This document shows positions 6,776 through 21,544 of a stretch of DNA of 21,544 nucleotides, one piece after another. The translations under genes were made by a program, and so were the position numbers. Under the pieces are notes generated by a model, which saw only the letters and a program-made list of their open reading frames with translations, had not been told where the DNA came from and searched no databases. Numbering within the stretch: the first letter of the stretch is position 1; every line of letters begins with the position of its first letter. The stretch lies in contig JBAXKC010000043.1 of assembly GCA_037137535.1 (NCBI GenBank), forward strand, positions 1 to 21,544, in the 5' to 3' direction. This DNA comes from a bacterium. Its GTDB lineage: Bacteria > Cyanobacteriota > Vampirovibrionia > Gastranaerophilales > JBAXKC01.

Positions 6776-9700
6776 TTACGCTCCAACGTTATTCAACCTT
6801 TGATAATACCACTTCTCTACTTCTTTACGCTTAACTTTTCTTGTTGCAGTTTTTGGTAATTCTTCAAGGTTAACCGTAATAACTGTCGGGCATTTATAAG
6901 AAGCAAGTTCAGCTTTTGCCTGTTTATTTACTTCTGAGGTAATAATTTTTTCTAATTCTTTAGGATTGTGCTGATATTGTTTAACTAAGTCATCGGAGGG
7001 AACTATAACGGCACATACTTCTTCTGTTCCGTCTTTTGCTCCGCCCTTAATTTTAACGCTCATAACGCATAGTTCTTTGATTAGTTCATTTTTGGATAAG
7101 GTTGCTTCGACTTCTTCGGGGAATATTTTCTTTCCTCCGCCTAAAACAATCATATTTTTAATTCGACCTGTTATATAAAGGAATCCGTCCTTGTCAAACT
7201 CTCCAATATCGCCTGTATGAAACCAACCTTCTTCATCTATTACTTCTGCGGTCATTTGAGGATTGTTGTAATAGCCTTTCATTAAGTTTGGACCTTTAGT
7301 TAAAATTTCACCTTCTTCTGAAAGTCTTATGATCACACTTGGAAGAGGTTTTCCTACAGAGCCGATGCGATTATCTTCGGGCGTATTTGTAGTTATTGAC
7401 GGGCTTGTTTCTGTCAATCCGTAACCTTGATAAATTGGAATTCCAATTCTTTCAAAGAATTCTCCTACTTCTGTTTCTAGTGGCGCACCGCCGCAGACAA
7501 AGCCTTTTAATTTTCCGCCAAAACCTGCAATAACTTTCTTAAACATAATTCTTCTAATGTGAATAGGCATGTATTTTGCAATTTTATACATAAATTCAAA
7601 GAGGTTTTGAGCTGTTTTATCTGATTTGCGAATTTCTTTTTCTACGCTGTTTTTAAGCATTTTTACAAAAAGCGGAACGACAATCATATATGTTGCCTGT
7701 CTTTCCTTCATAACTTTGCCGATTTCTTTAGGATTTAAGCTTTTGCAGTATGAAACTCTAGCTCCCATATAAAGCATTCCAAGAAAGCCGACATTCAGCT
7801 CTAAAAGGTGATTTAAAGGTAAGATTGAAACAAGAGAATCATTGGAATTGATTTTAAATACTGATTCAAAATCTTTTAATTGGGCGATAATATTTCCGAA
7901 AGTTATCATAACTCCTTTTGGATTACCTGTTGTGCCTGATGTATAGATAATTAAAGCTGTTTCGTCAAGTGTTCTGTCTCTTCCAATATCGCCTTGCGGA
8001 GCTTTTAGTTCATAAACAGATCTAAATTCACAACTTTGCGGTTTTTCTTCTATTACGAAGATATTTTCTATTGAAGGTATATTTTTTTGTAATTCTTTAG
8101 CTGTCTCAATATAATGTGCGGAAACGCATAATATTTTTGGTAAACAATCTGACAAAATAGAAATTAATTCAGCGTTAGTCAGCTTTATATCAAGCGGAAC
8201 GGTTATTGCTCCTGTCTGTATGGATGCAAATAAAGCAATTCCCCACTCTGGTCTTGATTCTGATAAAATAGCAATTTTATCGTTTCTTTCAAGTCCGTTA
8301 GCGATTAAATAATTTGCAAAGTTTTTTGCCTGTCTTGAAAGTTCAATGTAGCTTAATTCTTTCCAGCTGTCTTTATCTTTAAGTGATAAGGCTTTAACAG
8401 GTCCGTGGATGTCGCCTTTAAACTGCATTAGGTCAAGCACGTTTTCATAATCAGTTTTAGCTGCTTTTATTTTTTCTTTTCTTTCAATAGAATCCTTCAT
8501 AAATTGAACTCTGTCTTTGAGTTCATCAACAACGTTATCTTCCAGGTTGTAGATAGGTTGCCCGAATTGAATAGTGATTTTCTTGAATGTAGGAAATAAT
8601 TTATTATAAGCCCAAGCTTCAAAACCGCCGTGAATTACAAACGGAACTATGGGAGTGTTGCTGTTTTTTGCCATATAAGCAACGCCTTTGTTGAATTTGT
8701 TCAGTTTCCCGTCAGTAGTTAATTTCCCTTCGGGAAATATACAAAGGACTTCACCTTTTAATAGTTTTTTAACGGCAACATCAAGGGCTTCAACTCCTTT
8801 TCGAGGTTTAATTGCTATTACGTTAAAATAGTTTATGATTAACCTTATTACGGGAAGATTAAAGGCAACTTCGCCTGTGATAAACCATATCGGTCTTTTA
8901 CAGGCTACTTGAAGTATTAAAGTGTCAATCCAGCCTGTATGATTACCTGCAAGTATCATTTTACCGCTAGTTTTAAGATGTTCTCTTCCTTCAATTTTTA
9001 TTGGAAAGAAAACTCTAAAAATACTGCCAAATGTTGTACGTACTAAAAAGTGACGGAATGGGCTGTCAAAAAGTAACACAATAAGCGCCATTGAAAAACT
9101 TAATGCGGAAACGCTTTTAAATACATTAATCGGGCTTTTAATTGTCAAAACTTCGGATACAATCCACATTGTAGCTAGAAATGCACCTGTTGTAACGGTT
9201 GAGCGGAAACCGAAGATTTTTCCTCTTAATCTGTCTGGGGTTACTTTTTGGAGAATTGTATCTAATGTAATTAAAATAATAGAATTTGCAATTCCTATTA
9301 AAACCAGCCAGCCCCAAGCCATTGAATAAGTTTTTACAAGCTGAGCCGTTGCTGTTGTAAGGAAAATAGCAAGAAATGAGCCTGCGAGCAAATAAGAAAT
9401 TCTGATATATTTGCTTAAATACAAGGTGATTAATGTTCCCAATATCATTCCCACTCCAAGCATTCCTTTGAGTTTGCTTACTCCCGAAATTCCGATTTTA
9501 AAATAGTCGGTAGCTAGAGCGTTCATTGAATTGAAAAATGATGCTGTAATTAAGGACAAAGCGACTGATAGAAGAATTAATCTTAAAGTTTTTTTATGTT
9601 TTTTTAAATAAGCTAAAGTAAATCCAAAATCTTTAAATACGGTGTTATAAATACATTTGCCTACGCAGATTGTTGTATGTTTGCCAAGCTTCAAAAGTGA

Positions 9701-10282
9701 TGCGAATAAGGCTGAAATAATATAAATAAAACCGTTTAGGAATAAGCCGTTAGCTAAGCCTATTTTGTTGATATAAATTCCTGAGATTATCGCTCCTAAA
9801 AGGATTGCGATAGTTGCTGTTCCAGAATTTAAAGCATTGGCTAATTGTAAATGTTCTGATTTTACAATGTTTGGCAGGGTACTTTGTTTTGCAGGATAAT
9901 AAAAAGCAGAACCGATTCCCATTAAAAATGAAAACCCGTATATTGAAAAATTGGTATCTGCGATTATAATGGTATTTTTGAATAAAAAGGCAGGAATAAT
10001 AAAGACTAGAAGGGCCCTATAGGCATTACTGCACACCATAATCCATTTGCGGGAAAATCTGTCGGCAATACCCCCCGCTAAAGGACTTAGTAAGAGAGAA
10101 GGCAACATGAAGAAAAACAGAATTTTTGCCATTTCAGAACCGGCTTTTTGTGAAAAGCTTATCACCCAACTCATTAAAGCAATTTGAATAATGGAATCTC
10201 CTAAATAAGAGCAAATTTGCCCCAGCCATAATTTAAGAAATTCTTTGTTTTTAAATAAATTCGTAAATTTAATCTGCTTCAC
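6776..10282 (-). CDS. Three-domain fusion, 1168 aa: MFS transporter + PlsC-type lysophospholipid acyltransferase + AMP-forming long-chain acyl-CoA/ACP synthetase (LplT/Aas-like lipid salvage)
   Basis: GTG start with AGGAG at 10291-10295. MFS motif A is GGIADRFSRK. Acyltransferase motifs are NHTGWID (HX4D) and IFPEG. Adenylation motifs are YTSGTTGNPKG, GYGLTE, GWFHTGD, ITGRIK and LPKTATRKVKR. Confidence 0.92.
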   Translation of the reverse strand: MKQIKFTNLFKNKEFLKLWLGQICSYLGDSIIQIALMSWVISFSQKAGSEMAKILFFFMLPSLLLSPLAGGIADRFSRKWIMVCSNAYRALLVFIIPAFLFKNTIIIADTNFSIYGFSFLMGIGSAFYYPAKQSTLPNIVKSEHLQLANALNSGTATIAILLGAIISGIYINKIGLANGLFLNGFIYIISALFASLLKLGKHTTICVGKCIYNTVFKDFGFTLAYLKKHKKTLRLILLSVALSLITASFFNSMNALATDYFKIGISGVSKLKGMLGVGMILGTLITLYLSKYIRISYLLAGSFLAIFLTTATAQLVKTYSMAWGWLVLIGIANSIILITLDTILQKVTPDRLRGKIFGFRSTVTTGAFLATMWIVSEVLTIKSPINVFKSVSALSFSMALIVLLFDSPFRHFLVRTTFGSIFRVFFPIKIEGREHLKTSGKMILAGNHTGWIDTLILQVACKRPIWFITGEVAFNLPVIRLIINYFNVIAIKPRKGVEALDVAVKKLLKGEVLCIFPEGKLTTDGKLNKFNKGVAYMAKNSNTPIVPFVIHGGFEAWAYNKLFPTFKKITIQFGQPIYNLEDNVVDELKDRVQFMKDSIERKEKIKAAKTDYENVLDLMQFKGDIHGPVKALSLKDKDSWKELSYIELSRQAKNFANYLIANGLERNDKIAILSESRPEWGIALFASIQTGAITVPLDIKLTNAELISILSDCLPKILCVSAHYIETAKELQKNIPSIENIFVIEEKPQSCEFRSVYELKAPQGDIGRDRTLDETALIIYTSGTTGNPKGVMITFGNIIAQLKDFESVFKINSNDSLVSILPLNHLLELNVGFLGMLYMGARVSYCKSLNPKEIGKVMKERQATYMIVVPLFVKMLKNSVEKEIRKSDKTAQNLFEFMYKIAKYMPIHIRRIMFKKVIAGFGGKLKGFVCGGAPLETEVGEFFERIGIPIYQGYGLTETSPSITTNTPEDNRIGSVGKPLPSVIIRLSEEGEILTKGPNLMKGYYNNPQMTAEVIDEEGWFHTGDIGEFDKDGFLYITGRIKNMIVLGGGKKIFPEEVEATLSKNELIKELCVMSVKIKGGAKDGTEEVCAVIVPSDDLVKQYQHNPKELEKIITSEVNKQAKAELASYKCPTVITVNLEELPKTATRKVKRKEVEKWYYQRLNNVGA

Positions 10283-11113: not shown

Positions 11114-11866
11114 TTAATCTTTATTCAAGTATTGATATAAATGAATTTGAGCTTCTTTTGTTATTGCATTTCCATTTTTATCAATAGTGTAAGTTTGATT
11201 GTTGTTTTCAGTTGTAATAGAAAATTCCATATTTCTCTCTGTTTTTCCTGTGTCAAATAGATTTAAAGCGAATGTTTTATTTGGCGCTATTTTAAGCGGG
11301 AATTTAGAGAGTTTAAACTTGTTTGCTTCGTTTATTGCTATTAAGTCTCTTGCAGGAAGAGAAACAGCTAAATATGGAACTGAAATAAGACTAAGGCTTG
11401 ACTCTTTCATTAAATTTAAGGATTTATGAGAGGTATTTGGTATTGAATCAAGATAAAGTTTATCTTTGCTGATTAAATAAGAGGTTCCATAAAAAACTGT
11501 ACCAGGTATAGTAACAGTAAATCCTATTGCGCCAATCGCCAATCCAATCGGTGCTACTATAAGTTCGCCTGTTTTTGAGAAAATATCCAAGGCTCTGTTT
11601 TGCTGTTTTTGAACTATAAATTGATGAGGATTTTGAACACTTGATATTTGAGTAAGGTATATATTTTCTGAGGAAGTATTTTTGATTTTGTAAGTATAAG
11701 CATGGTTTTTCTCTTTTAGGTAGCTTTTTAAATTGTACTTTTCTTTTATAATTTCAAATGGTTTTGCTTGATAAGCGTTTTGAGTGATTAACTCTTCAGC
11801 ATAAGTGCAAGTCGCATTTGTTACTGTTGCTAAAAGTAATAAGGCAGTAGCAATTTTCTTTTTCAT
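11114..11866 (-). CDS. Hypothetical exported protein, 250 aa
   Basis: Strong RBS AAAAGGAG just upstream and signal peptide MKKKIATALLLLATVTNATCTYA. There is one internal Gly-rich hydrophobic segment (LIVAPIGLAIGAIGFTVTIPGTVF). No family was recognised. Confidence 0.75.
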   Translation of the reverse strand: MKKKIATALLLLATVTNATCTYAEELITQNAYQAKPFEIIKEKYNLKSYLKEKNHAYTYKIKNTSSENIYLTQISSVQNPHQFIVQKQQNRALDIFSKTGELIVAPIGLAIGAIGFTVTIPGTVFYGTSYLISKDKLYLDSIPNTSHKSLNLMKESSLSLISVPYLAVSLPARDLIAINEANKFKLSKFPLKIAPNKTFALNLFDTGKTERNMEFSITTENNNQTYTIDKNGNAITKEAQIHLYQYLNKD

Positions 11867-12612: not shown

Positions 12613-12668
12613 ATATATTCTTAATAAGTGAGTTATAATTGAAAATAATAAAAAAACGGATAAATTAT

Positions 12669-14153
12669 ATGGCTATTAAAGGTTTTGCCTCTTCAATCAG
12701 TACAAAAAACTTTTCGGAACAATATAAAGAATTTAATTTTAATCTTTTGGGAAAAACTGACTTATCAGTTACGTCAGTAGGTTTTGGGAGTTATAGAATT
12801 GATATTAGGTCTGATATAAACAAAAAATCACTTAAACAGGCACTTTTATCCGGAATTAACCTCATTGATACAAGCTCTACATATACAAACGGAAATTCTG
12901 AACTTCTTATAGGCAAAGTATTAAAAGAATTAACAGATTCTAATGATTTATTAAGAGAAAATCTTGTAATAGTTACTAAAGGCGGATATTTGCAAGGTCA
13001 TAACTATGATTTAAGCCAAAAACTAAAAAAAGAAAATAATGCTTTTCCTGATTTAGTTGAATATCAAAAAGGTTTAGAGCATTGTCTCCATCCTGAATTT
13101 TTAGAAGATCAGATAAATAGAAGTCTGGAAAGATTGGGGATTGAAACTATTGATGTTTATTTACTCCATAATCCCGAATATTATCTTAAATGGGCGGAAA
13201 AAAAGAACATAGATTTAATTCTTGCCAGAAAAGAGTATTATTCAAGAATTAAAAAGGCTTTTGAATATTTGGAAAAAGAAGTTCAAAAGGGAAGAATTAA
13301 GAATTACGGGATTAGTTCTAATACTTTTCCTGCTGATTCTAATGATTATAGTTTTACTTCTTTAGATACTGTTATTAAAATTGCTGAGGAAATCGCTGAA
13401 AATAATCATTTCAGCATTATAGAATTTCCGATGAATTTAGCGGAAACGGCTGCTTCTAGGCAAATAAATCAATCAAATAATATGACATTGCTTCAAGTAG
13501 CCGAAGCTAAAAATTTAGGTGTTTTAATTAATCGACCGTTAAATGCTTTTCATAACAATAAACTTATTAATTTAGCCGAGCCTGTCATTATTAATGAAGC
13601 TCCCAGCGTAGAATTTATCAATAATACGCTAGAAAATATAGATAAACTGGAACAATTAATCTCTCAAAAAGTATATGAAAATAATGCATTTTTGTTAGAA
13701 ATAGAAAAATATCTGTTTGTTTTTAATGAATTACAATTTAGTTGGCTAGATATAAATAATATTTCAAATTGGCAATCAGCCTTAAATCAATATTTTTTGC
13801 CAAGATTTTATTATTCTAAAAATATGATTAAAAAGAGTGCTTTAAAAAATAAAGAATCGGAAAATAGATTAATAGCTGAAATAGATAAATTATTTGAGCT
13901 TATCTCTTCTTATTTTAATAATGAACATTTGCAATTAATAATAAGGATAAAAGAAAACATAGTTAAGCAGCTACCCGAATTATCCTCAAGAAAAAATTTA
14001 AGTAGTATGGCAATCTGTTCATTAAGATCAACTGACGGAATAACGGCAGTATTGGTTGGAATGACTCAACTTTCTTATGTTGAAGATGTTATTAAAGAGT
14101 TACAATTATCGCCTATTAAGGATATTGATTGGATAAAAGTTGAAATTGATTAA
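12669..14153 (+). CDS. Aldo/keto reductase family protein, 494 aa, long form with an inserted helical segment
   Basis: LGKTDLSVTSVGFG, with the catalytic tetrad in IDTSSTY (D,Y), IVTKGG (K) and YLLHNPE (H). Also SLERLGIETID and AVLVGM. ATG 12669 (ACGGA upstream) is preferred over the ORF-track TTG 12639, which overlaps a TATAAT at 12634-12639. Confidence 0.9.
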   Translation: MAIKGFASSISTKNFSEQYKEFNFNLLGKTDLSVTSVGFGSYRIDIRSDINKKSLKQALLSGINLIDTSSTYTNGNSELLIGKVLKELTDSNDLLRENLVIVTKGGYLQGHNYDLSQKLKKENNAFPDLVEYQKGLEHCLHPEFLEDQINRSLERLGIETIDVYLLHNPEYYLKWAEKKNIDLILARKEYYSRIKKAFEYLEKEVQKGRIKNYGISSNTFPADSNDYSFTSLDTVIKIAEEIAENNHFSIIEFPMNLAETAASRQINQSNNMTLLQVAEAKNLGVLINRPLNAFHNNKLINLAEPVIINEAPSVEFINNTLENIDKLEQLISQKVYENNAFLLEIEKYLFVFNELQFSWLDINNISNWQSALNQYFLPRFYYSKNMIKKSALKNKESENRLIAEIDKLFELISSYFNNEHLQLIIRIKENIVKQLPELSSRKNLSSMAICSLRSTDGITAVLVGMTQLSYVEDVIKELQLSPIKDIDWIKVEID

Positions 14154-14468
14154 TTTATCCACAAACAGGAACAAATGTATTATTAATCTTTATTAGTATT
14201 TATAAAAACTAGAATGAGAATTTAATATTAAATTATATGTAAATAATGAAAAATATATTTGTAATTATTAACAGCTCTTAATAAATTGCAAATAGGCTTT
14301 TTAGTGAAAATTTAAGCTATATAAACGTTTTCATGCGTATTGCCTGATTTTAATTGCCTATACTATTTAGTGGTTGCTGTTACGGTTGTAGTTATGGTAG
14401 ACTGCCACAGATGGATGAATAGTCCAAAGTATTATCGGTAAAGCAATAAACTATTTAGGAGATTAAAG

Positions 14469-17400
14469 ATGCCAGTTAATTTGTATGAAAACGAGAATCC
14501 TTCAGTTTATAAATATACTTATGAATATGGAAGATTTAATGAACTTTTAAGTGAGAAAGAATACAGCTTAGATGGATCTACTTTAATCTCAGAATCTAAA
14601 TACACATATAATTATAATGCAGATAATACTTTGGTTTTAGTTGAAGCACACAAAGATATTTATAATGATGATATTAAAACAGCAGTAATCAAATATGAAT
14701 ATAATGAAAGTGGAGATGCAGTTACTAAGGAATCTTATTTTAATTGTGATCCTAAATTAGGGTTATTACCTACTTATATTAAGCATTTGGACGAAAATGG
14801 AAATGTAATTTCTTCAGAATATCTTAGTAATCGCTTTGACGAAAACGGAAATATAATTTCTTCTACAATGTACGATAATTTAGAGCTTTTAGCTAATTCT
14901 GAATTAATGGGAAATGTTAAAGATATAGCAACTGCCGGTTTAGCGGCAGCAGTTTCAGCTGAAGATTTAACTCATACAGCTTTAGAAAATGCTACAACTG
15001 CTAAAAATAATGCTATTGCTACTGCTGCCGCTACACAAACAGCTTTAGAAAATGCTACAACTGCTAAAAGTGAAGCTATTGCTGAAGCAGCTACGACGCA
15101 AACAGCTTTAGAAAATGCTACCTCTGCTCTTGCGACAGCAACTTCAAATGCAACAGCAACTGAAACGGCGAAAATTAATGCTACAACTGCAAGAACTAAT
15201 GCAATTGAAGCGGCAGCAATTACGCAAACCGCTTTGGATAATGCAACAACTGCGAAAACAAATGCTATTGCTGCCGCTTCAGTTACCCAAACCGCTTTAG
15301 ATAATGCTAGCTCTGCTCTTGCAACAGCAATTGCAAATGCAACAGCAACTGAAACTGCGAAAAATAATGCTACAACTGCAAGAACTAATGCAATTGCTGC
15401 TGCTGCAATTACACAAACAGCGTTAGATAATGCTACCTCTGCTCTTACATCTGCAACTTCAAATGCAACAACAACACAAACAGCATTGGATAGTGCCACA
15501 ACTGATAAAAACAATGCTATTGCTGCTGCTGCAGTTACACAAACAGCTTTAGAAAATGCTGCCACTGTTAAAAATAACGCTATAGCTGCCGCTGCAGTTA
15601 CGCAAATCACTTTAGAAAATGCTGCCTCTGCTCTTGCAACAGCAATTGCGAATGCAACAGCAACTGAAACTGCGAAAACTAATGCTAATACTGCAAGAGA
15701 TAATGCTATTGCTGATGCTGCAATTACGCAAACAGCTTTAGATAATGCTACATCTGCTCTTGCAACAGCAACGTCAAATGCAACAGCAACTGAAACTGCG
15801 AAAATTAATGCTACCACTGCGAAAATTAATGCTATTTCTGCTGCTGCAATTACGCAAACAGCTTTGGATAATGCAACAACCGATAAAACTAATGCTATTA
15901 CTGCCGCTGCAGTAACCCAAACAGCTTTAGATAATGCTACCTCTGCTCTTGCAACAGCAACTTCAAATGCGACAGCAACTGAAACTGCGAAAACTAATGC
16001 AACAACTGCAAGAACTAATGCTATCGCTGCTGCCGCAGTTACGCAAACCGCTTTAGATAATGCTGTCTCTGCTCTTGCAACAGCAACGTCAGATGCAACA
16101 GCAACTGAAACTGCGAAAATTAATGCTACTACTGCAAGAACTAACGCAATTGCTGCCGCCGCAGTTACTCAAACCGCTTTGGATAATGCTATAACTGCTA
16201 AAAACAATGCAATAGCTGATGCCGCAGTTACTCAAACAGCTTTAGATAATGCTACATCTGCTTTAGCTTCAGCTGTTACAAATGCCGGAACTACTCAAAC
16301 TGCATTAGATAATGCTACTACTGCTAAAAGCAACGCTATTACAGCTGCAGCTACTGCCGCTTTGGCTCTTACGAACGATGCTACTAATATATCGCTTATT
16401 GCTGCTAAACAAGCGGCAGATGCACTTGTAGTAACAAAAACAAATGAATTAGATGCCCTCAGAACACCGGAATACCTTGCGGCTCTTGCCTTAAAAGAAG
16501 AAGCTGTTGCAGCTGCAGTAATAACAAATAATGCATTAGTTGCAGCAACATCAGCTCATGATGCTGCTGTCGCGGCAGCCGCAGCTACTCAAACAGCCTT
16601 AAATAATGCAACAACTACATGGGGTAATGCCGTAACAGCAGCAGCACTTACAGAAACAGCTAAAATTAACGCTGCAACTGCATTAAGTGATGCCGTAACA
16701 GCAGCAGGAATAACAGAAACAGCTAAAACTAATGCCACAACTGCATTAAGTGATGCCGTAACAGCGGCAGGAATAACAGAAACAATTAAAACTAATGCCA
16801 CAACTGCTCGTGACACAGCTGTTACTGCTGCGGCATTAACTGAAACAGCGAAAACTAATGCTGTAAATGTCTGGAATGATGCTGTAGCAGCTGCAGTAGC
16901 CACTCAAACAGCAAAAGATAATGCTGTTACTGCCTTATCAACTGCAAACACAAATGCTGCAACTGCATTAACAGCAATGAATAATGCCACAACTTTATTA
17001 AATAATGCAATTGCTGCTGCCAATAACACTGAAGCTTCAAAAGTTGCAGCAACAAATGCAAAAGTAACTGCAGTTGCAAATGCTGCAACTGCATTAGCAG
17101 CAAAAAATGCTGCAACTACTGCAAAAGCTGATGCAGTTGCAGCAGCTGTAATCACTCAAAATGCTGTAAATACTGCAACTACTGCAAAATCAGATGCAGA
17201 AGCAGCCGCCGCATTAACTCAAGCAGATGTAGACGTTGCTTCGTTAGCCTGGAACAATGCTGTAACTGGTGCAGCAACGGCCGCAAGTAATCTTGCTGAT
17301 GATCCTTCAAATGTAACTCTTCAAACGGCAAAGGATAATGCTGATGCTTTAGTTGTCTCTACATTAGCGACTTTAACAAATGCAACAACCATTGATGATG

Positions 17401-20400
17401 CTTATGATGCTATAGTTGTAACAAAAACAGCTGAATTAGCCGCTGCCGTAGCGGCAGATAATACAGCTGATGCACTGGTTATAACAAGAAACTCTCAATT
17501 AGCAACTGCAAATACAGCATTAACAACAGCAAATGCCTTAGTAACAAGTAAAACTAATGCTTTGAATATGGCTATATCAATAGATAATGTAACTGATGCT
17601 TCAGTTATAACAAGAGCTAATGAATTAAATACCGCTACAACTGCATATAATACAGCAACTGCTTTAGTTACAACAAAAACAAATGAATTAACTACTGCCA
17701 CATCAGCAGATGATGCTGCAGATGCTCTAGTCGCTACTGACTTAACTGCCAAAAATGCTGCTATATCAGCAGATAATGCAGCTGATGCTTTAGTTACAAC
17801 AAGAAATAATGAATTAAGCGCAGCTACAACAGCAGATACAACAGCTGATGATTTAGTCGCAACAAGAACAAGTGAGTTAAATACTGCTACAACAGCAGAT
17901 ACAACAGCTGATAACTTAGTAACCACAAGAACTACAGAATTAGCGACAGCCACAACAAATGATCAAAATGCTGACGCTTTAGTTGTTTCAACATTAGCTA
18001 CAAAAGTAAGTGCTACCAATGCCGATAATACAGCTGATGGTATAGAATCATCAACAAATGCAACATTAATAAGCGCTACTGCTGCAGATAATGCAGCTGA
18101 TACTCTGGTAACAACAAGAACCAACGCAGTAAACGCTACAATCTCACCGGAAGCTATAGCCGCAGGTGAAGCGCTAAATTCAGCAATCAATGCCGCTGCA
18201 ATAACTCAAACTGCAAAGAATACAGCAACAACAGCATTAGCAACGGCAATTTCAAATGCGACAGCTACTGAAGCTGCTAAAATTAATGCTACAACTGCTC
18301 GTGATGCAGCTGTTACAGCTGCGGCATTAACTGAAACAGCAAAAAATGATGCGGATACAGAATGGAATAATGCAGTTTCAGCAGCTGTAATAACTCAAAC
18401 GGCAAAAGACAATGCTACAACTGATTTAGCAACCGCAACTAATGCCGCAGCCGCTACTCAATCTATAAAAGATACGGCAGTAACTGCACTTGCAAATGCT
18501 GAATCTGCAGCTGCTATAACTCAAACAGCTAAAGATAATGCTACATCAGCACTTACATCAGCAACAAATAATGCTGCTATAACTCAAACAGCAAGAGATA
18601 ATGCCATAGCTGCTTATAATAGTGCTGTATCAGCAGCAGCTACAACCCAAACTGCCAAAGATAACGCTACAACTGCTTATAATAATGCTGTTTCATCAGC
18701 AGCTATTACTCAAACAGCTAAAGATGCAGCCAGTTCAGAGCTGGCAACCGCAGTATCAGCTGCTATTGTAACTCAAACCGCTAAAGATGCGGCAGTTGCT
18801 GCATTGGCAAGTGCAAATACTAGCGCAGCAGCAACTGAAACTGCTAAAATAGCTGCAAATACAGCATTAACAACAGCAAATACTAATGCCGCAGCAACGG
18901 AAACCGCAAAAAACAATGCAATAACGGCTTATAATAATGCTGTCACTGCTGCTGCAGTTACAGAAACAAATAAAACAAATGCAAGTTCAGATTTAGATGC
19001 TGCAGTTGCGGCAGCGGCTACTACTCAAGCAACTAAGGACGCAGCCAGTACTGCTCTTAGTTCTGCAGTTACAGCAGCAGCTGCTACTCAAGCTACAAAA
19101 AATACTGCAACTTCTGAATTAACCGCCGCTACAAATGCGGCTCTTGAAACTCAAGATGCTAAAGATGCTGCAACATCAGCATGGAATGATGCAGTCTCCT
19201 TTGCCGCATTTACACAAACCTCAGTAGATGATGCAACAATAGCATTAAATAGTGCAAATACTGCAGCGTCAGATGCAGCAGCTGCATTAGTAGGTCATGA
19301 ATCTGATGCGGGGCTTATTGCCGCAAAAGCAGCAGCTGATGATCTTGTTATTTCTGCAACAGCTGATCTTACAAATGCTACAACAATAGATACTTTTATG
19401 GATTCATTGGTTTCTACAACAGCATCAGATTTAACAGCGGCAACAAATGCTGATGATGCGGCGGATGCTTTAGTTTTAACAAAAACTACTGCATTAACTA
19501 ATGCCACAAATGCTGATGATACTGCGCAGGCTTTAGTTGCAACAAGAACAACCGCTTTAACTAATGCTACAAATGCAGATAATACTGCAGATGCTTTGGT
19601 GGTAACAAGAACAACCGCTTTAACCAATGCTACAAATGCAGATAATACTGCTAATGCCTTGGTTACCTCAACATTAGCCGCTAAAAATGCTGCAATAACC
19701 GCAGATAATACTGCTGATGCTTTAGTTGTTACAAGAACAAATGAATTAACTGCGGCAACAACAGCAGATACAACAGCTGATAACTTAGTCACAACAAGAA
19801 CTACTGAATTAGCTACTGCAACAACAGCAGATAATACAGCCGATGCTTTAGTGGTAACTAAAACCACTGCTTTAAATAATGCAACTAATTCTAACAACGT
19901 ATTAGAGGGTTTAGTTTCAGCAAGAGCTGCTGACTTAGCAACTGCGACAACTAATGATAATAATGCGGATGCGTTAGTTGCCTCTAGGTTAGCCACAAAA
20001 AATACGGCAATATCAACAGACGATATTGCAGATGCATTAGTTACAACAAGAACCTCTGAATTGACAACTGCGACAAATAATGATAATACAGCAGATGCTT
20101 TGGTTACAACAAGAACTAATGAATTGGCAACGGCCACAACTAACGATAATATTGCAGATGCGTTAGTTACAACAAGAACAAATGAATTAGCTACTGCCAC
20201 AACTGCGGATAATACAGCAGATGCTCTAGTTGCAACTAAATTAGGACTATTAAATGCTGCTATTAGTGCTGATGATACAGCAGATGCCTTGGTTGTAACT
20301 CGAAATAATCAACTGACTACAGCTACAAATACTGATAATACAGCAGATGCGTTGGTTGTAACTCGAAATAATCAACTGACAGATGCTACAAGTGCCGATG

Positions 20401-21544
20401 ATGTAGCAGATGCCTTGGTTGTAACAAGAACAAACGAATTTACTGCATTGACAACAGGAGGAGGACTTGCAAGCGCTGAAACCGCAATAGCAACTGCCGA
20501 AACGGCATTAGTAAATGCCCAAACAGCTGCAACTACAGCTGCAGACGCACTTGCAAATAATGCTGATGTAAATGCATTGATTGCCGCAAAAGCTACAGCA
20601 GATACATTAGTTGTAACAACAACAACAGCATTTAATAATGCTCAAACAGCAGATACAACAGCTGATAATTTAGTCACAACAAGAACAAATGAATTAGCTA
20701 CTGCAACAACAGCAGATAATACAGCTGATGCTTTAGTTTCATCAACAACTGCTACATTTGATGCAGCAGTAACAGCCGATACAACAGCAGATAACTTAGT
20801 CACCACAAGAACAAATGAATTAGCTACTGCAACAGCAGACGATACAACCGCAGATAACTTAGTCACCACAAGAACAAGTGAATTAGCTACTGCAACAACA
20901 GCAGATAATATAGCAGATGCTTTAGTTACAACAAGAACAAATGAATTAGCTACTGCGACAACCGCAGATAATATAGCAGATGCTTTAGTCACAACAAGAA
21001 CAAATGAATTAGCAACTGCGACAACAGCCGATAATACAGCTGATGCTTTAGTTTCATCAACAACGGCTACCTTTGATGCAGCAGTAACAGCAGATACAGC
21101 AGCAGATGACTTAGTCGCAACAAGAACAAGTGAATTAAATGCTGCGACAACAGCAGATACAACAGCAGATAATTTAGTCACAACAAGAACAAATGAATTA
21201 GCTACTGCGACAACAGCGGATACAACAGCAGATAATTTAGTCACAACAAGAACAAATGAATTAGCTGCGGCAACAACAGCCGATACAACAGCTGATAATT
21301 TAGTTACAACAAAAACTAATGAATTAGCCGCAGCTACAACCGCAGATACAGCCGCAGATAATTTAGTTTCATCAACAACTGCTACATTTGATGCTGCATT
21401 AACCGCAGATACAAGCGCAGATGATCTAGTTTCATCAACAACTGCTACATTTGATGCTGCATTAACCGCAGATACAACCGCAGATGATCTAGTAACAACA
21501 AGAACGACTGAACTAGCTACGGCTACAACTAATGATCAAAATGC
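14469..21544 (+). CDS. Giant Ala/Thr-rich 21-aa-repeat coiled-coil protein, at least 2358 aa, 3' end outside the window (absent from the ORF track)
   Basis: AGGAG at 14457-14461 and ATG at 14469. Manual translation stays open in one frame from MPVNLYENENPSVYKYTYEY to ...ATATTNDQNA at the window end. It was probably omitted from the track because it has no stop codon. No signal peptide. Confidence 0.95.
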   Translation, partial: MPVNLYENENPSVYKYTYEYGRFNELLSEKEYSLDGSTLISESKYTYNYNADNTLVLVEAHKDIYNDDIKTAVIKYEYNESGDAVTKESYFNCDPKLGLLPTYIKHLDENGNVISSEYLSNRFDENGNIISSTMYDNLELLANSELMGNVKDIATAGLAAAVSAEDLTHTALENATTAKNNAIATAAATQTALENATTAKSEAIAEAATTQTALENATSALATATSNATATETAKINATTARTNAIEAAAITQTALDNATTAKTNAIAAASVTQTALDNASSALATAIANATATETAKNNATTARTNAIAAAAITQTALDNATSALTSATSNATTTQTALDSATTDKNNAIAAAAVTQTALENAATVKNNAIAAAAVTQITLENAASALATAIANATATETAKTNANTARDNAIADAAITQTALDNATSALATATSNATATETAKINATTAKINAISAAAITQTALDNATTDKTNAITAAAVTQTALDNATSALATATSNATATETAKTNATTARTNAIAAAAVTQTALDNAVSALATATSDATATETAKINATTARTNAIAAAAVTQTALDNAITAKNNAIADAAVTQTALDNATSALASAVTNAGTTQTALDNATTAKSNAITAAATAALALTNDATNISLIAAKQAADALVVTKTNELDALRTPEYLAALALKEEAVAAAVITNNALVAATSAHDAAVAAAAATQTALNNATTTWGNAVTAAALTETAKINAATALSDAVTAAGITETAKTNATTALSDAVTAAGITETIKTNATTARDTAVTAAALTETAKTNAVNVWNDAVAAAVATQTAKDNAVTALSTANTNAATALTAMNNATTLLNNAIAAANNTEASKVAATNAKVTAVANAATALAAKNAATTAKADAVAAAVITQNAVNTATTAKSDAEAAAALTQADVDVASLAWNNAVTGAATAASNLADDPSNVTLQTAKDNADALVVSTLATLTNATTIDDAYDAIVVTKTAELAAAVAADNTADALVITRNSQLATANTALTTANALVTSKTNALNMAISIDNVTDASVITRANELNTATTAYNTATALVTTKTNELTTATSADDAADALVATDLTAKNAAISADNAADALVTTRNNELSAATTADTTADDLVATRTSELNTATTADTTADNLVTTRTTELATATTNDQNADALVVSTLATKVSATNADNTADGIESSTNATLISATAADNAADTLVTTRTNAVNATISPEAIAAGEALNSAINAAAITQTAKNTATTALATAISNATATEAAKINATTARDAAVTAAALTETAKNDADTEWNNAVSAAVITQTAKDNATTDLATATNAAAATQSIKDTAVTALANAESAAAITQTAKDNATSALTSATNNAAITQTARDNAIAAYNSAVSAAATTQTAKDNATTAYNNAVSSAAITQTAKDAASSELATAVSAAIVTQTAKDAAVAALASANTSAAATETAKIAANTALTTANTNAAATETAKNNAITAYNNAVTAAAVTETNKTNASSDLDAAVAAAATTQATKDAASTALSSAVTAAAATQATKNTATSELTAATNAALETQDAKDAATSAWNDAVSFAAFTQTSVDDATIALNSANTAASDAAAALVGHESDAGLIAAKAAADDLVISATADLTNATTIDTFMDSLVSTTASDLTAATNADDAADALVLTKTTALTNATNADDTAQALVATRTTALTNATNADNTADALVVTRTTALTNATNADNTANALVTSTLAAKNAAITADNTADALVVTRTNELTAATTADTTADNLVTTRTTELATATTADNTADALVVTKTTALNNATNSNNVLEGLVSARAADLATATTNDNNADALVASRLATKNTAISTDDIADALVTTRTSELTTATNNDNTADALVTTRTNELATATTNDNIADALVTTRTNELATATTADNTADALVATKLGLLNAAISADDTADALVVTRNNQLTTATNTDNTADALVVTRNNQLTDATSADDVADALVVTRTNEFTALTTGGGLASAETAIATAETALVNAQTAATTAADALANNADVNALIAAKATADTLVVTTTTAFNNAQTADTTADNLVTTRTNELATATTADNTADALVSSTTATFDAAVTADTTADNLVTTRTNELATATADDTTADNLVTTRTSELATATTADNIADALVTTRTNELATATTADNIADALVTTRTNELATATTADNTADALVSSTTATFDAAVTADTAADDLVATRTSELNAATTADTTADNLVTTRTNELATATTADTTADNLVTTRTNELAAATTADTTADNLVTTKTNELAAATTADTAADNLVSSTTATFDAALTADTSADDLVSSTTATFDAALTADTTADDLVTTRTTELATATTNDQN
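14970..16355 (+). repeat. Block A1: 22 x 63-bp type-A repeats (T[QE]TA[LK]xNATTA[KRL]xxAIAAAAx)
   Basis: Exact 63-bp period. Three subtypes: a = TQTAL..K, b = TQTAL..SALATA, c = TETAK..R. Order is a a b c a b c b a a b c b c a b c b c a b a. Confidence 0.92.
16467..18146 (+). repeat. Internal module 1: about 13 type-A repeats (16467-17279), turn (17280-17339), about 13 type-B repeats ADxLVxTRTNELxxATTADxx (17340-18146)
   Basis: Manual translation and unit counting. Bounded by TPE (Pro 16467) and SPE (Pro 18147). Confidence 0.9.
18147..20456 (+). repeat. Internal module 2: about 18 type-A repeats (18147-19274), turn (19275-19334), about 18 type-B repeats (19335-20456)
   Basis: Manual translation and unit counting. 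Ends at a GGG linker (20457-20465). Confidence 0.9.
20598..21544 (+). repeat. Block B4: at least 15 x 63-bp type-B repeats, continuing beyond the window
   Basis: ADNLVTTRTNELATATTADTT-type units, with Phe variants (mostly VSSTTATFDAA) at units 1, 3, 8, 13 and 14. Confidence 0.92.

Follow-up and report, generated by a model that had tools for sequence, protein, structure and literature searches.

Mirrored residue pairs suggest an antiparallel helical hairpin in a giant Ala/Thr-rich repeat protein of a Gastranaerophilales bacterium

A Giant Repeat Protein With a Probable Helical Hairpin

The window analyzed in this study is a stretch of 21,544 nucleotides (positions 1 to 21,544 of the forward strand) of contig JBAXKC010000043.1 from a bacterium of the Gastranaerophilales (Cyanobacteriota, Vampirovibrionia; NCBI GenBank assembly GCA_037137535.1), and its subject is a gene (P0001) that encodes a giant repeat protein. 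We consider it likely that residues 667–1227 of this protein (hairpin 1) form one intramolecular antiparallel alpha-helical hairpin within a giant, Ala/Thr-rich fibrous protein, whereby a candidate interface between the two arms can be read from residue pairs that mirror each other about the turn. A sequence-only reading of the same stretch had claimed such a symmetry about a DDPSN turn. The mirrored variants proved to be non-random and specific for the cognate register, as seen from an unbiased scan of column pairs, a register control, permutations and a second hairpin of the same chain (hairpin 2).

The protein has a length of at least 2358 amino acids, since the open reading frame (ORF) runs off the window and the C-terminus lies beyond it. 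Its N-terminal domain of about 150 residues is free of repeats and is followed by an unbroken lattice of 21-residue units, which are of two types, A and B. Each unit equals three times seven residues, and there are no insertions or deletions across about 2200 residues. From residue 169 on, Ala accounts for 29% and Thr for 23% of all residues, and Asp plus Glu make up 10.2% compared to 4.2% for Lys plus Arg. The repeat protein is thus acidic; it has few aromatic residues, a single Cys and five Trp in the whole ORF. The arms formed by the units are listed in Table 1, and a common motif is found in all four turns. The two longest arms, A0 and B3, both have no cis partner arm within the window. 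Arm A0 shows a DNA period of 315 nt at 82% and is free of aromatic markers, and B3 contains a variant unit of its own with Phe at its end, found at units 0, 2, 7, 12, and 13. Pairing between A0 and B3 was tested in eight registers and gave no signal (best z 1.06), and pairing of B1 with A2 about the S-P-E junction reached a maximum z of 2.3, which is noise level.

Mirror Symmetry and Marker Pairs in Hairpin 1

For the analysis of hairpin 1, the region from residue 667 to 1226 of the ORF was taken and the units of 21 residues were stacked outward from S947. The ten codon positions named in the sequence-only reading were all correct when the sequence was read again, and the five codon pairs built from them each sum to 34614 (residue sums of 1894) about S947, the Ser of DDPSN with its TCA codon at 17307. 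Three of the pairs involve the TGG codons at 16620, 16872, and 17250, which encode W718, W802, and W928, the only Trp residues between 667 and 1226. Their mirror partners are the TTA codons at 17994, 17742, and 17364 (L1176, L1092, and L966, respectively). All of these residues occupy column 19 of the unit, and Leu at column 19 of the B arm is restricted to units 0, 6, and 10 of 13, which are exactly the units that carry Trp in the A arm, as had been claimed. The other two pairs lie at column 8 and consist of L834 and L876 (TTA at 16968 and 17094), which are mirrored by Y1060 (TAT at 17646) and L1018 (TTA at 17520). Listed by unit, column 8 reads AQQLELQEEEEQN in the A arm and KDDLDYDDDDDDD in the B arm, and the hydrophobic pair corresponds to units 3 and 5. 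In agreement with the original claim, Leu occurs at column 8 of the A arm solely in these two units, where the B arm has Leu or Tyr instead of Asp. The turn-proximal unit 0 is also off-consensus at column 8 in both arms (Ala and Lys), a feature that the sequence-only reading did not mention.

The arms had been estimated at about 13 units each, and counting yielded 279 residues per arm, that is 13.3 units. The boundaries of the hairpin are marked by Pro: P667, P946, and P1227 (codons 16467–16469, 17304–17306, and 18147–18149) are the only Pro residues after residue 101 and sit at the base, the turn, and the base of hairpin 1, whereby 667 + 1227 = 1894 = 2 × 947. Both base Pro residues are part of T/S-P-E motifs, which look like helix N-capping boxes.

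The Pairing Rule Recurs in Hairpin 2

Hairpin 2 (residues 1228–1996, axis S1612) shows the same geometry, with 1227 + 1997 = 3224 and arms of 384 and 384 residues. In its A arm, column 19 is aromatic in units 14, 10, 9, 5, and 1 (W1299, Y1383, Y1404, Y1488, and W1572), and these residues face L1925, L1841, A1820, L1736, and A1652, respectively. These five partners are the only residues other than Thr or Asn at column 19 among the 18 B units (p = 1.2e-4), and the five codon pairs each sum to 38604. Taking both hairpins together, aromatic residues at column 19 of the A arm face Leu or Ala in 8 of 8 cases (0 of 200,000 within-hairpin permutations). A further set of column-19 residues, R781 (codon at 16809), H697 (16557), and R1278 (18300), faces N1113 (17805), N1197 (18057), and N1946 (20304), so that Arg or His stands opposite Asn in three of three cases (826 of 200,000 permutations), with Asn being present in just 5 of the 31 B units.

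In the proposed pairing at column 19, the side chain in one arm would dictate the side chain opposite: Leu or Ala in B, instead of the Thr of the consensus, would be opposite Trp or Tyr in A, and an adjacent Arg or Lys is often lost; Asn in B would stand against Arg or His in A, and Thr in B against Lys or Leu in A. A three-class pairing rule was obeyed by 28 of the 31 units across both hairpins (0 of 200,000 permutations).

Besides column 19, hairpin 2 contains an exactly mirrored pair of Phe residues at column 10 of unit 1, F1581 (19209–19211) and F1643 (19395–19397). Column 10 lies on another helical face than column 19, and the pair hints at either a special cap near the turn or a wider interface.

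The Covariation Is Specific for the Cognate Register

For hairpin 1 alone, the match between Trp units and Leu units has a hypergeometric p of 0.0035, or 0.014 when all partners other than Thr and Asn are counted, and simple counting gives 1/78 [C(13,2)] for the column-8 pair. An unbiased scan was carried out over all 21 × 21 column pairs with hairpins 1 and 2 pooled and the two turn-proximal units omitted, which left 27 unit pairs. Here, A19/B19 ranked first of the 441 column pairs with z 6.25, compared to a family-wise 95% threshold of 5.28, followed by A19/B17 (z 4.44) and A19/B20 (z 3.98). The covariation had been described as readable at the level of single residues; this grain was set slightly too fine, since A19 also covaries with B17, B20, and B21. 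Short patches around column 19 change together.

Comparison against shifted registers had been suggested as a check, and its outcome was clear. Over shifts from –5 to +5 units, the highest z (6.51, for A19/B19) was obtained at shift 0, and the other ten registers gave maximum z values of 2.5–5.1 at unrelated column pairs. Likewise, the mutual information at column 19 amounted to 0.885 and 0.684 for the cognate arms compared to 0.19 and 0.18 for non-cognate arms. When the total mutual information over all columns was used for hairpin 2 without the turn-proximal units, the true register was reached by 17 of 5000 permutations and was the best of 16 shifts; a single-residue axis scan placed the axis sum of 3224 first of 63. 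A simple count of aromatic residues against any Leu under axis shifts does not discriminate, because every B unit has a conserved Leu.

Predicted Structure

Structure prediction with AlphaFold2 was carried out for the central 171 residues of hairpin 1 (862–1032), which were aligned with the centre of hairpin 2 (46% identity). The model has a predicted local distance difference test score (pLDDT) of 97.4 and a predicted template modelling score (pTM) of 0.77 and consists of two helices (863–944 and 949–1031), which are connected by the loop D945–N948. In the runs on this central segment, three of five models reached a pLDDT of at least 96.7 and two were at about 50. The model of the whole 560-residue segment is also nearly all helix according to DSSP, with a break at residues 941–950. 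A complex prediction of the A arm (795–940) with the B arm (954–1099) scored 0.31 compared to a mark of 0.34. Among the seven 3-4 stripes, the stripe {1,5,8,12,15,19} is the most hydrophobic one for both arms jointly (3.97; next 3.53), and both covarying columns, 8 and 19, lie on it.

A Foldseek search with the central model retrieved the RipA N-terminal domain with a query template modelling score (TMq) of 0.88 (6ewy) and 0.86 (9hmx_A), colicin E3 with 0.71, and the chemoreceptor Tsr with 0.70, as well as other chemoreceptors and Smc fragments. These are long hairpins of two helices. All of the matches have an expect value (E) of at least 0.028, and the identity is mostly 9–18% (26% for 4ke2), and what they share with the model is shape only. 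Foldseek with the 560-residue model gave no match.

Interpretation of the Hairpin

In the proposed hairpin, the A-type arm of three-heptad units would run up to the DPSN loop and the equally long B-type arm would run back, with the T/S-P-E motifs marking both ends of hairpin 1. Since the arms are antiparallel and of equal length, residues 947–d and 947+d would lie at the same height. With a helix rise of 0.148 nm per residue, the lengths amount to about 41 nm for hairpin 1 and about 57 nm for hairpin 2 if both are fully helical. Column 19 and, less surely, column 8 would be located in the A-B interface, which would otherwise be made up of small and polar residues (Ala, Thr, Gln/Glu-Asp). The Gln/Glu-Asp pair that is usual at column 8 is replaced twice, by Leu-Leu or Leu-Tyr. 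Judging from the covariation, the marker side chains may touch across the helix interface, and the sporadic hydrophobic pairs may staple an otherwise weak Ala/Thr interface, thereby favouring the correct 21-residue register. Mis-zippering by 21 residues should be penalized, because the marker pairs are irregularly spaced. The role of the marker pairs as a register lock, for which the term “barcode” had been used, is plausible but unproven.

There are several points that weigh against this interpretation. With respect to the covariation, the Arg/His-Asn class was set up after the data had been seen, and no homologue was found that would allow a covariation test across species. The pooled A8/B8 signal is weak (z 2.43, p 0.051), and the column-8 variants have no counterpart in hairpin 2. 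For hairpin 1, the total mutual information without the turn-proximal units was reached by 191 of 5000 permutations, which is marginal, a cyclic shift of 2 outscored the true register in the same measure, and the single-residue axis scan put 1894 only sixth of 63. Moreover, the non-cognate combination of A2 with B1 gave p values of 0.006 with and 0.022 without the turn-proximal units; the total over all columns is inflated because these units are special. With respect to the structure, the single-sequence AlphaFold2 model of the 560 residues is poor (pLDDT 62, pTM 0.24), and its confident blocks (796–906 and 1086–1176) do not mirror one another. Polar layers (Gln/Glu-Asp and Ala-Asp) would lie within the proposed core stripe. 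The hydrophobic harmonic at 3.5 residues has a low amplitude of 1.17 compared to 3.59 at period 4.2 for the A arm and of 1.73 compared to 4.40 at period 10.5 for the B arm, and each helix has a second hydrophobic face. In the structure check that had been proposed, the central 171 residues are predicted to fold as a hairpin, and the full 560-residue segment is modelled poorly. An antiparallel hairpin turning at DDPSN is backed by the equal arms and the confident AlphaFold2 model, but a strictly two-helix coiled coil is not, given the weak harmonic and the second hydrophobic faces.

Alternative Explanations

It might be that the pairs are true contacts without any register function, acting as staples or folding nuclei, as the covalent turn and the equal arms already fix the register; we rate this at somewhat below an even chance. 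The loop and the Pro/Gly boundaries would define the register on their own, and the markers of hairpin 2 make a poor code, since a slip by four units still keeps three of the five pairs. However, any whole-unit slip of hairpin 1 retains at most one of its five marker pairs, and the units are nearly identical, so that a bulged mis-zippering by 21 residues should be cheap if the markers were missing.

Another explanation, which we regard as possible but rather unlikely, would retain the same A-B contacts and make a larger bundle the functional unit, either a dimer of hairpins (a four-helix arrangement as in chemoreceptors or ROP) or a trimer, whereby each helix would use its second face for another helix. 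Large hydrophobic residues are indeed present on two faces (columns 15 and 19 on one and column 10 on the other in A; columns 1 and 15 on one and column 14 on the other in B), the second-best joint stripe {3,7,10,14,17,21} scores 3.53, and the mirrored F1581/F1643 pair lies at column 10. In addition, several of the top fold matches (Tsr 1qu7, other chemoreceptors, and 4ke2) are hairpins that dimerize into four-helix bundles. On the other hand, AlphaFold2 folds the monomer confidently as a two-helix hairpin in the absence of a partner.

Pairing between chains, in the form of a domain-swapped antiparallel dimer or polymer, seems improbable. A symmetric swapped dimer would satisfy the mirror symmetry equally well, and some intermolecular A-B pairing is plausible for A0 and B3, which lack a cis partner in the window; the four-residue, Pro-containing loop flanked by equal arms and the confident intrachain model argue for pairing within the chain.

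An origin of the pattern by chance or as a by-product of repeat duplication (for example an ancient inverted DNA duplication) without structural meaning is extremely improbable. In its favour, the classes were chosen after the sequence had been seen, the turn-proximal units inflate the total mutual information, and the likeness between unit 8 and unit 9, which is seen in either arm of hairpin 1, hints at paired duplications. Against it, the family-wise threshold was passed, register 0 was unique among 11, the rule was replicated in hairpin 2, none of the 200,000 permutations reached the observed pairing, no reverse-complement similarity between A and B exceeded that of shuffles, and a Mantel test was not significant.

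That the mirror pattern stems from an inverted repeat in the DNA was ruled out, as the reverse complement of A scored 18 and 19 against B compared to shuffle means of 18.8 and 19.2, and the complementarity at the exact mirror offset (0.196 and 0.188) was below the average over offsets. The Mantel test of the unit genealogies gave r 0.09 and 0.11 (p 0.30 and 0.19). At the DNA level, units 8 and 9 (16674–16799 and 17814–17939) resemble each other more than any other adjacent units do, in the A arm (95% identity) as well as in the B arm (79%) of hairpin 1. This would fit the duplication of a unit in one arm that was matched at the mirrored place in the other.

Comparison With Known Systems

Long helical hairpins are well known from chemoreceptors, SMC/Rad50, colicins, and RipA. 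The chemoreceptor hairpins (Tsr 1qu7; Thermotoga maritima receptor 2ch7) resemble hairpin 1 in being long and antiparallel; their arms are based on heptads, and the units of hairpin 1 measure three times seven residues. They are unrelated in sequence, and the repeat protein has no conserved signalling tip; in comparison to chemoreceptors, its arms have two to three times the length and are composed of two different types of 21-residue repeat, and one chain contains several hairpins. The length of the chemoreceptor hairpin is described in PMC5907407 as having evolved by symmetric insertions and deletions of heptads in both arms. SMC, Rad50, and MukB, for which PMC4255302 describes an intramolecular antiparallel coiled coil of about 50 nm between an N-terminal and a C-terminal helix, share the intramolecular antiparallel pairing (Smc fragments 5xg2, TMq 0.45, and 5nnv, TMq 0.42). 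In contrast to these, no ATPase head or hinge was found here, the tandem repeats are strict and uninterrupted and the turn is a four-residue loop instead of a domain.

The hairpins of the colicin E3 receptor-binding region and of the RipA N-terminus are like hairpin 1 in being isolated two-helix antiparallel hairpins, and the superposition with colicin E3 (2b5u_A) has a root-mean-square deviation of 2.2 over 137 columns at the TMq given above. Unlike hairpin 1, they are non-repetitive and much shorter, and the matches have E 0.06 or worse and 14–18% identity. ROP, which belongs with the Alacoil concept, and the winter flounder type I antifreeze protein Maxi (4ke2) are Ala-rich antiparallel hairpins as well, Maxi being also Thr-rich, and 4ke2 has the highest identity among the matches listed (26%; TMq 0.40). 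Maxi has an 11-residue periodicity and dimerizes around water, whereas the period of the repeat protein is 21 residues.

The approach itself is related to the inference of contacts from covariation in repeat proteins, for which the repeated units supply the statistics (PMC8078820). Those methods use family alignments of many species, whereas here the two arms of one molecule constitute the paired “alignment.”

Searches for Relatives

The repeat protein belongs to no Pfam, NCBIfam, or PHROGs family, and a protein homologue search at E ≤ 0.001 among proteins of near, greater, and shorter length gave 0 matches. A phmmer search with residues 1–1200 against 1.84 billion representatives yielded 11 matches at E ≤ 0.001 (best 1.1e-11). 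The 5 of these 11 that were examined are low-complexity Ala/Thr/Asp-rich look-alikes with other architectures and were rejected as homologues. When genome contigs were scanned for hairpin 2 and for the aldo-keto reductase encoded upstream, no locus was confirmed. With tblastn, no match was found in plasmid records or, for the hairpin, in 50,697 phage records, and a sequence search of the PDB had no match with E below 0.2. The hairpin scored at most 0.77 in the ESM Atlas. The open-access papers searched did not describe any comparable protein.

For residues 1–170, the only Pfam entries returned at E up to 10 were DUF3836, which stayed below its cut-off (E 0.0089), and MORN_2 (E 0.13). The N-terminal domain matched RHS_repeat clusters of the ESM Atlas with scores of 0.83–0.89, which is a lead only, and membership in the RHS/YD-repeat proteins was rejected, as no RHS_repeat or YD-shell profile matched residues 1–170. 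A phage tail fibre or other phage structural protein was discarded in view of the lack of a PHROG or a phage tblastn match and the chromosomal, housekeeping-type neighbours. The methyl-accepting chemotaxis protein (MCP) signalling domain is not represented either, PF00015 being unmatched on P0001 at a threshold of E 0.01 and on the hairpin at a threshold of E 10. An SMC/Rad50-type arm was rejected since no Pfam or NCBIfam family was found on the 2358 residues and the apex is a four-residue loop.

Gene, Start Site and Neighbourhood

The gene of the repeat protein and its features are summarized in Table 1. A promoter/terminator scan upstream of the gene gave four sites, compared to 3.9 expected by chance, all of them on the minus strand. 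The neighbours of the gene resemble bacterial genes of chromosomal type and encode a chemoreceptor, an ABC (ATP-binding cassette) substrate-binding protein, a DUF2339 membrane protein, a fusion of a major facilitator superfamily (MFS) transporter with an acyltransferase and an acyl ligase, a hydrolase, a MarR regulator, and an aldo-keto reductase. The PF00015 profile matches the neighbour gene at 151–2778, which is unrelated to the repeat protein. The G+C content is about 27–36% in the neighbours compared to about 39–43% in the repeat region, where it is raised because of the Ala and Thr codons. Minus-strand ORFs of 104–301 amino acids are present inside the repeat gene (14972–15817, 16589–16903, 17495–17953, 19295–20200, and 20642–21244) and presumably result from the lattice of GCN/ACN-rich codons.

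Among the neighbours, the 1168-amino acid fusion on the minus strand (6776–10282; MFS transporter, acyltransferase, and AMP-binding acyl ligase) resembles models of acyl-[acyl carrier protein]-phospholipid O-acyltransferase, with 401.7 bits compared to an NCBIfam cut-off of 1221. Directly upstream of the repeat gene, a 504-amino acid ORF with a TTG start (12639–14153, plus strand) has an aldo-keto reductase match that spans residues 58–296 only, so the start may have been set too early or there may be an extra C-terminal part without a family. A 250-amino acid ORF on the minus strand (11114–11866) has no Pfam or NCBIfam family and only a weak PHROGs “lipoprotein” match (E 0.0028).

Table 1. 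Coordinates of the repeat protein gene and its features within the 21,544-nucleotide window.
Feature	Position	Strand	Remarks
Shine-Dalgarno sequence AGGAG	14457..14461	+	7 nt before ATG
Giant repeat protein gene (P0001)	14469..21542	+	One ORF, 2358 codons, 3'-open at window end
N-terminal non-repeat domain (residues ~1–150)	14469..14918	+	Y/D/N-rich beta-hairpin-like motifs, no signal-peptide-like start
Arm A0 (residues 169–638)	14973..16382	+	22 A-type units in 63-residue super-repeat
Turn T639 (NDATN) and short B-type helix B0 (residues 640–666)	16383..16466	+	Turn motif aligns with hairpins 1–3
T666-P667-E668, base of hairpin 1, start of helix A1	16464..16472	+	P667 + P1227 = 1894 = 2 × 947
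Arm A1 (residues 668–944)	16470..17300	+	Markers W718, W802, W928, L834, L876; helical in models
Loop D945-P946-S947-N948, mirror axis S947 (17307)	17301..17312	+	Sole non-helical residues inside the 171-residue AlphaFold2 model
Arm B1 (residues 949–1226)	17313..18146	+	Markers L966, L1018, Y1060, L1092, L1176
S1226-P1227-E1228, where hairpin 1 ends and hairpin 2 begins	18144..18152	+	
Arm A2 (residues 1228–1611)	18150..19301	+	W1299 (18363), Y1383 (18615), Y1404 (18678), Y1488 (18930), W1572 (19182)
Mirror axis of hairpin 2: S1612 (in GHESD), the homologue of S947	19302..19304	+	1227 + 1997 = 3224 = 2 × 1612
Arm B2 (residues 1613–1996)	19305..20456	+	A1652 (19422), L1736 (19674), A1820 (19926), L1841 (19989), L1925 (20241)
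G1997-G1999 (GGG) break, short A-type helix A3 (residues 2000–2032) and turn D2033	20457..20567	+	
Arm B3 (residue 2034 to window end)	20568..21542	+	At least 15 B-type units

Meaning of the Mirrored Pairs

The whole protein may constitute an extended structural fibre. The acidic composition, the few aromatic residues, the single Cys, and the lack of a signal peptide would point to an exported fibrous protein, which would probably use a non-Sec route. A further-reaching idea, which we think unlikely, is that the two repeat alphabets and the column-19 pairing code make up an address system that tells near-identical stretches which partner to zip with. Such a code would set the register in the 41-nm and 57-nm hairpins and keep A1 from pairing with B2, and the partnerless arms A0 and B3 might pair between molecules, thereby building a defined fibre or lattice. 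If true, this would be a natural analogue of the designed orthogonal coiled-coil “origami.”

The register of long antiparallel coiled-coil arms such as those of SMC, Rad50, and chemoreceptors is difficult to assign, and thousands of homologues are usually required for an analysis of covariation. In the present case, one sequence without detectable relatives carries its own paired alignment of 31 unit pairs in two hairpins, so that the position of the turn, the register, and a candidate column of the interface can be read from it and checked against shifted registers. What is new are the two complementary 21-residue repeat types, the occurrence of several exactly symmetric hairpins in one giant chain without detectable relatives, and a pairing rule that is readable, and open to controls, within one sequence. 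If the contacts are confirmed, the protein would be a natural example of how near-identical repeats avoid mis-zippering, it would provide a rule set for the design of long, register-specific hairpins and of rods of set length (about 41 and about 57 nm), and it would represent a new family of giant bacterial fibrous proteins.

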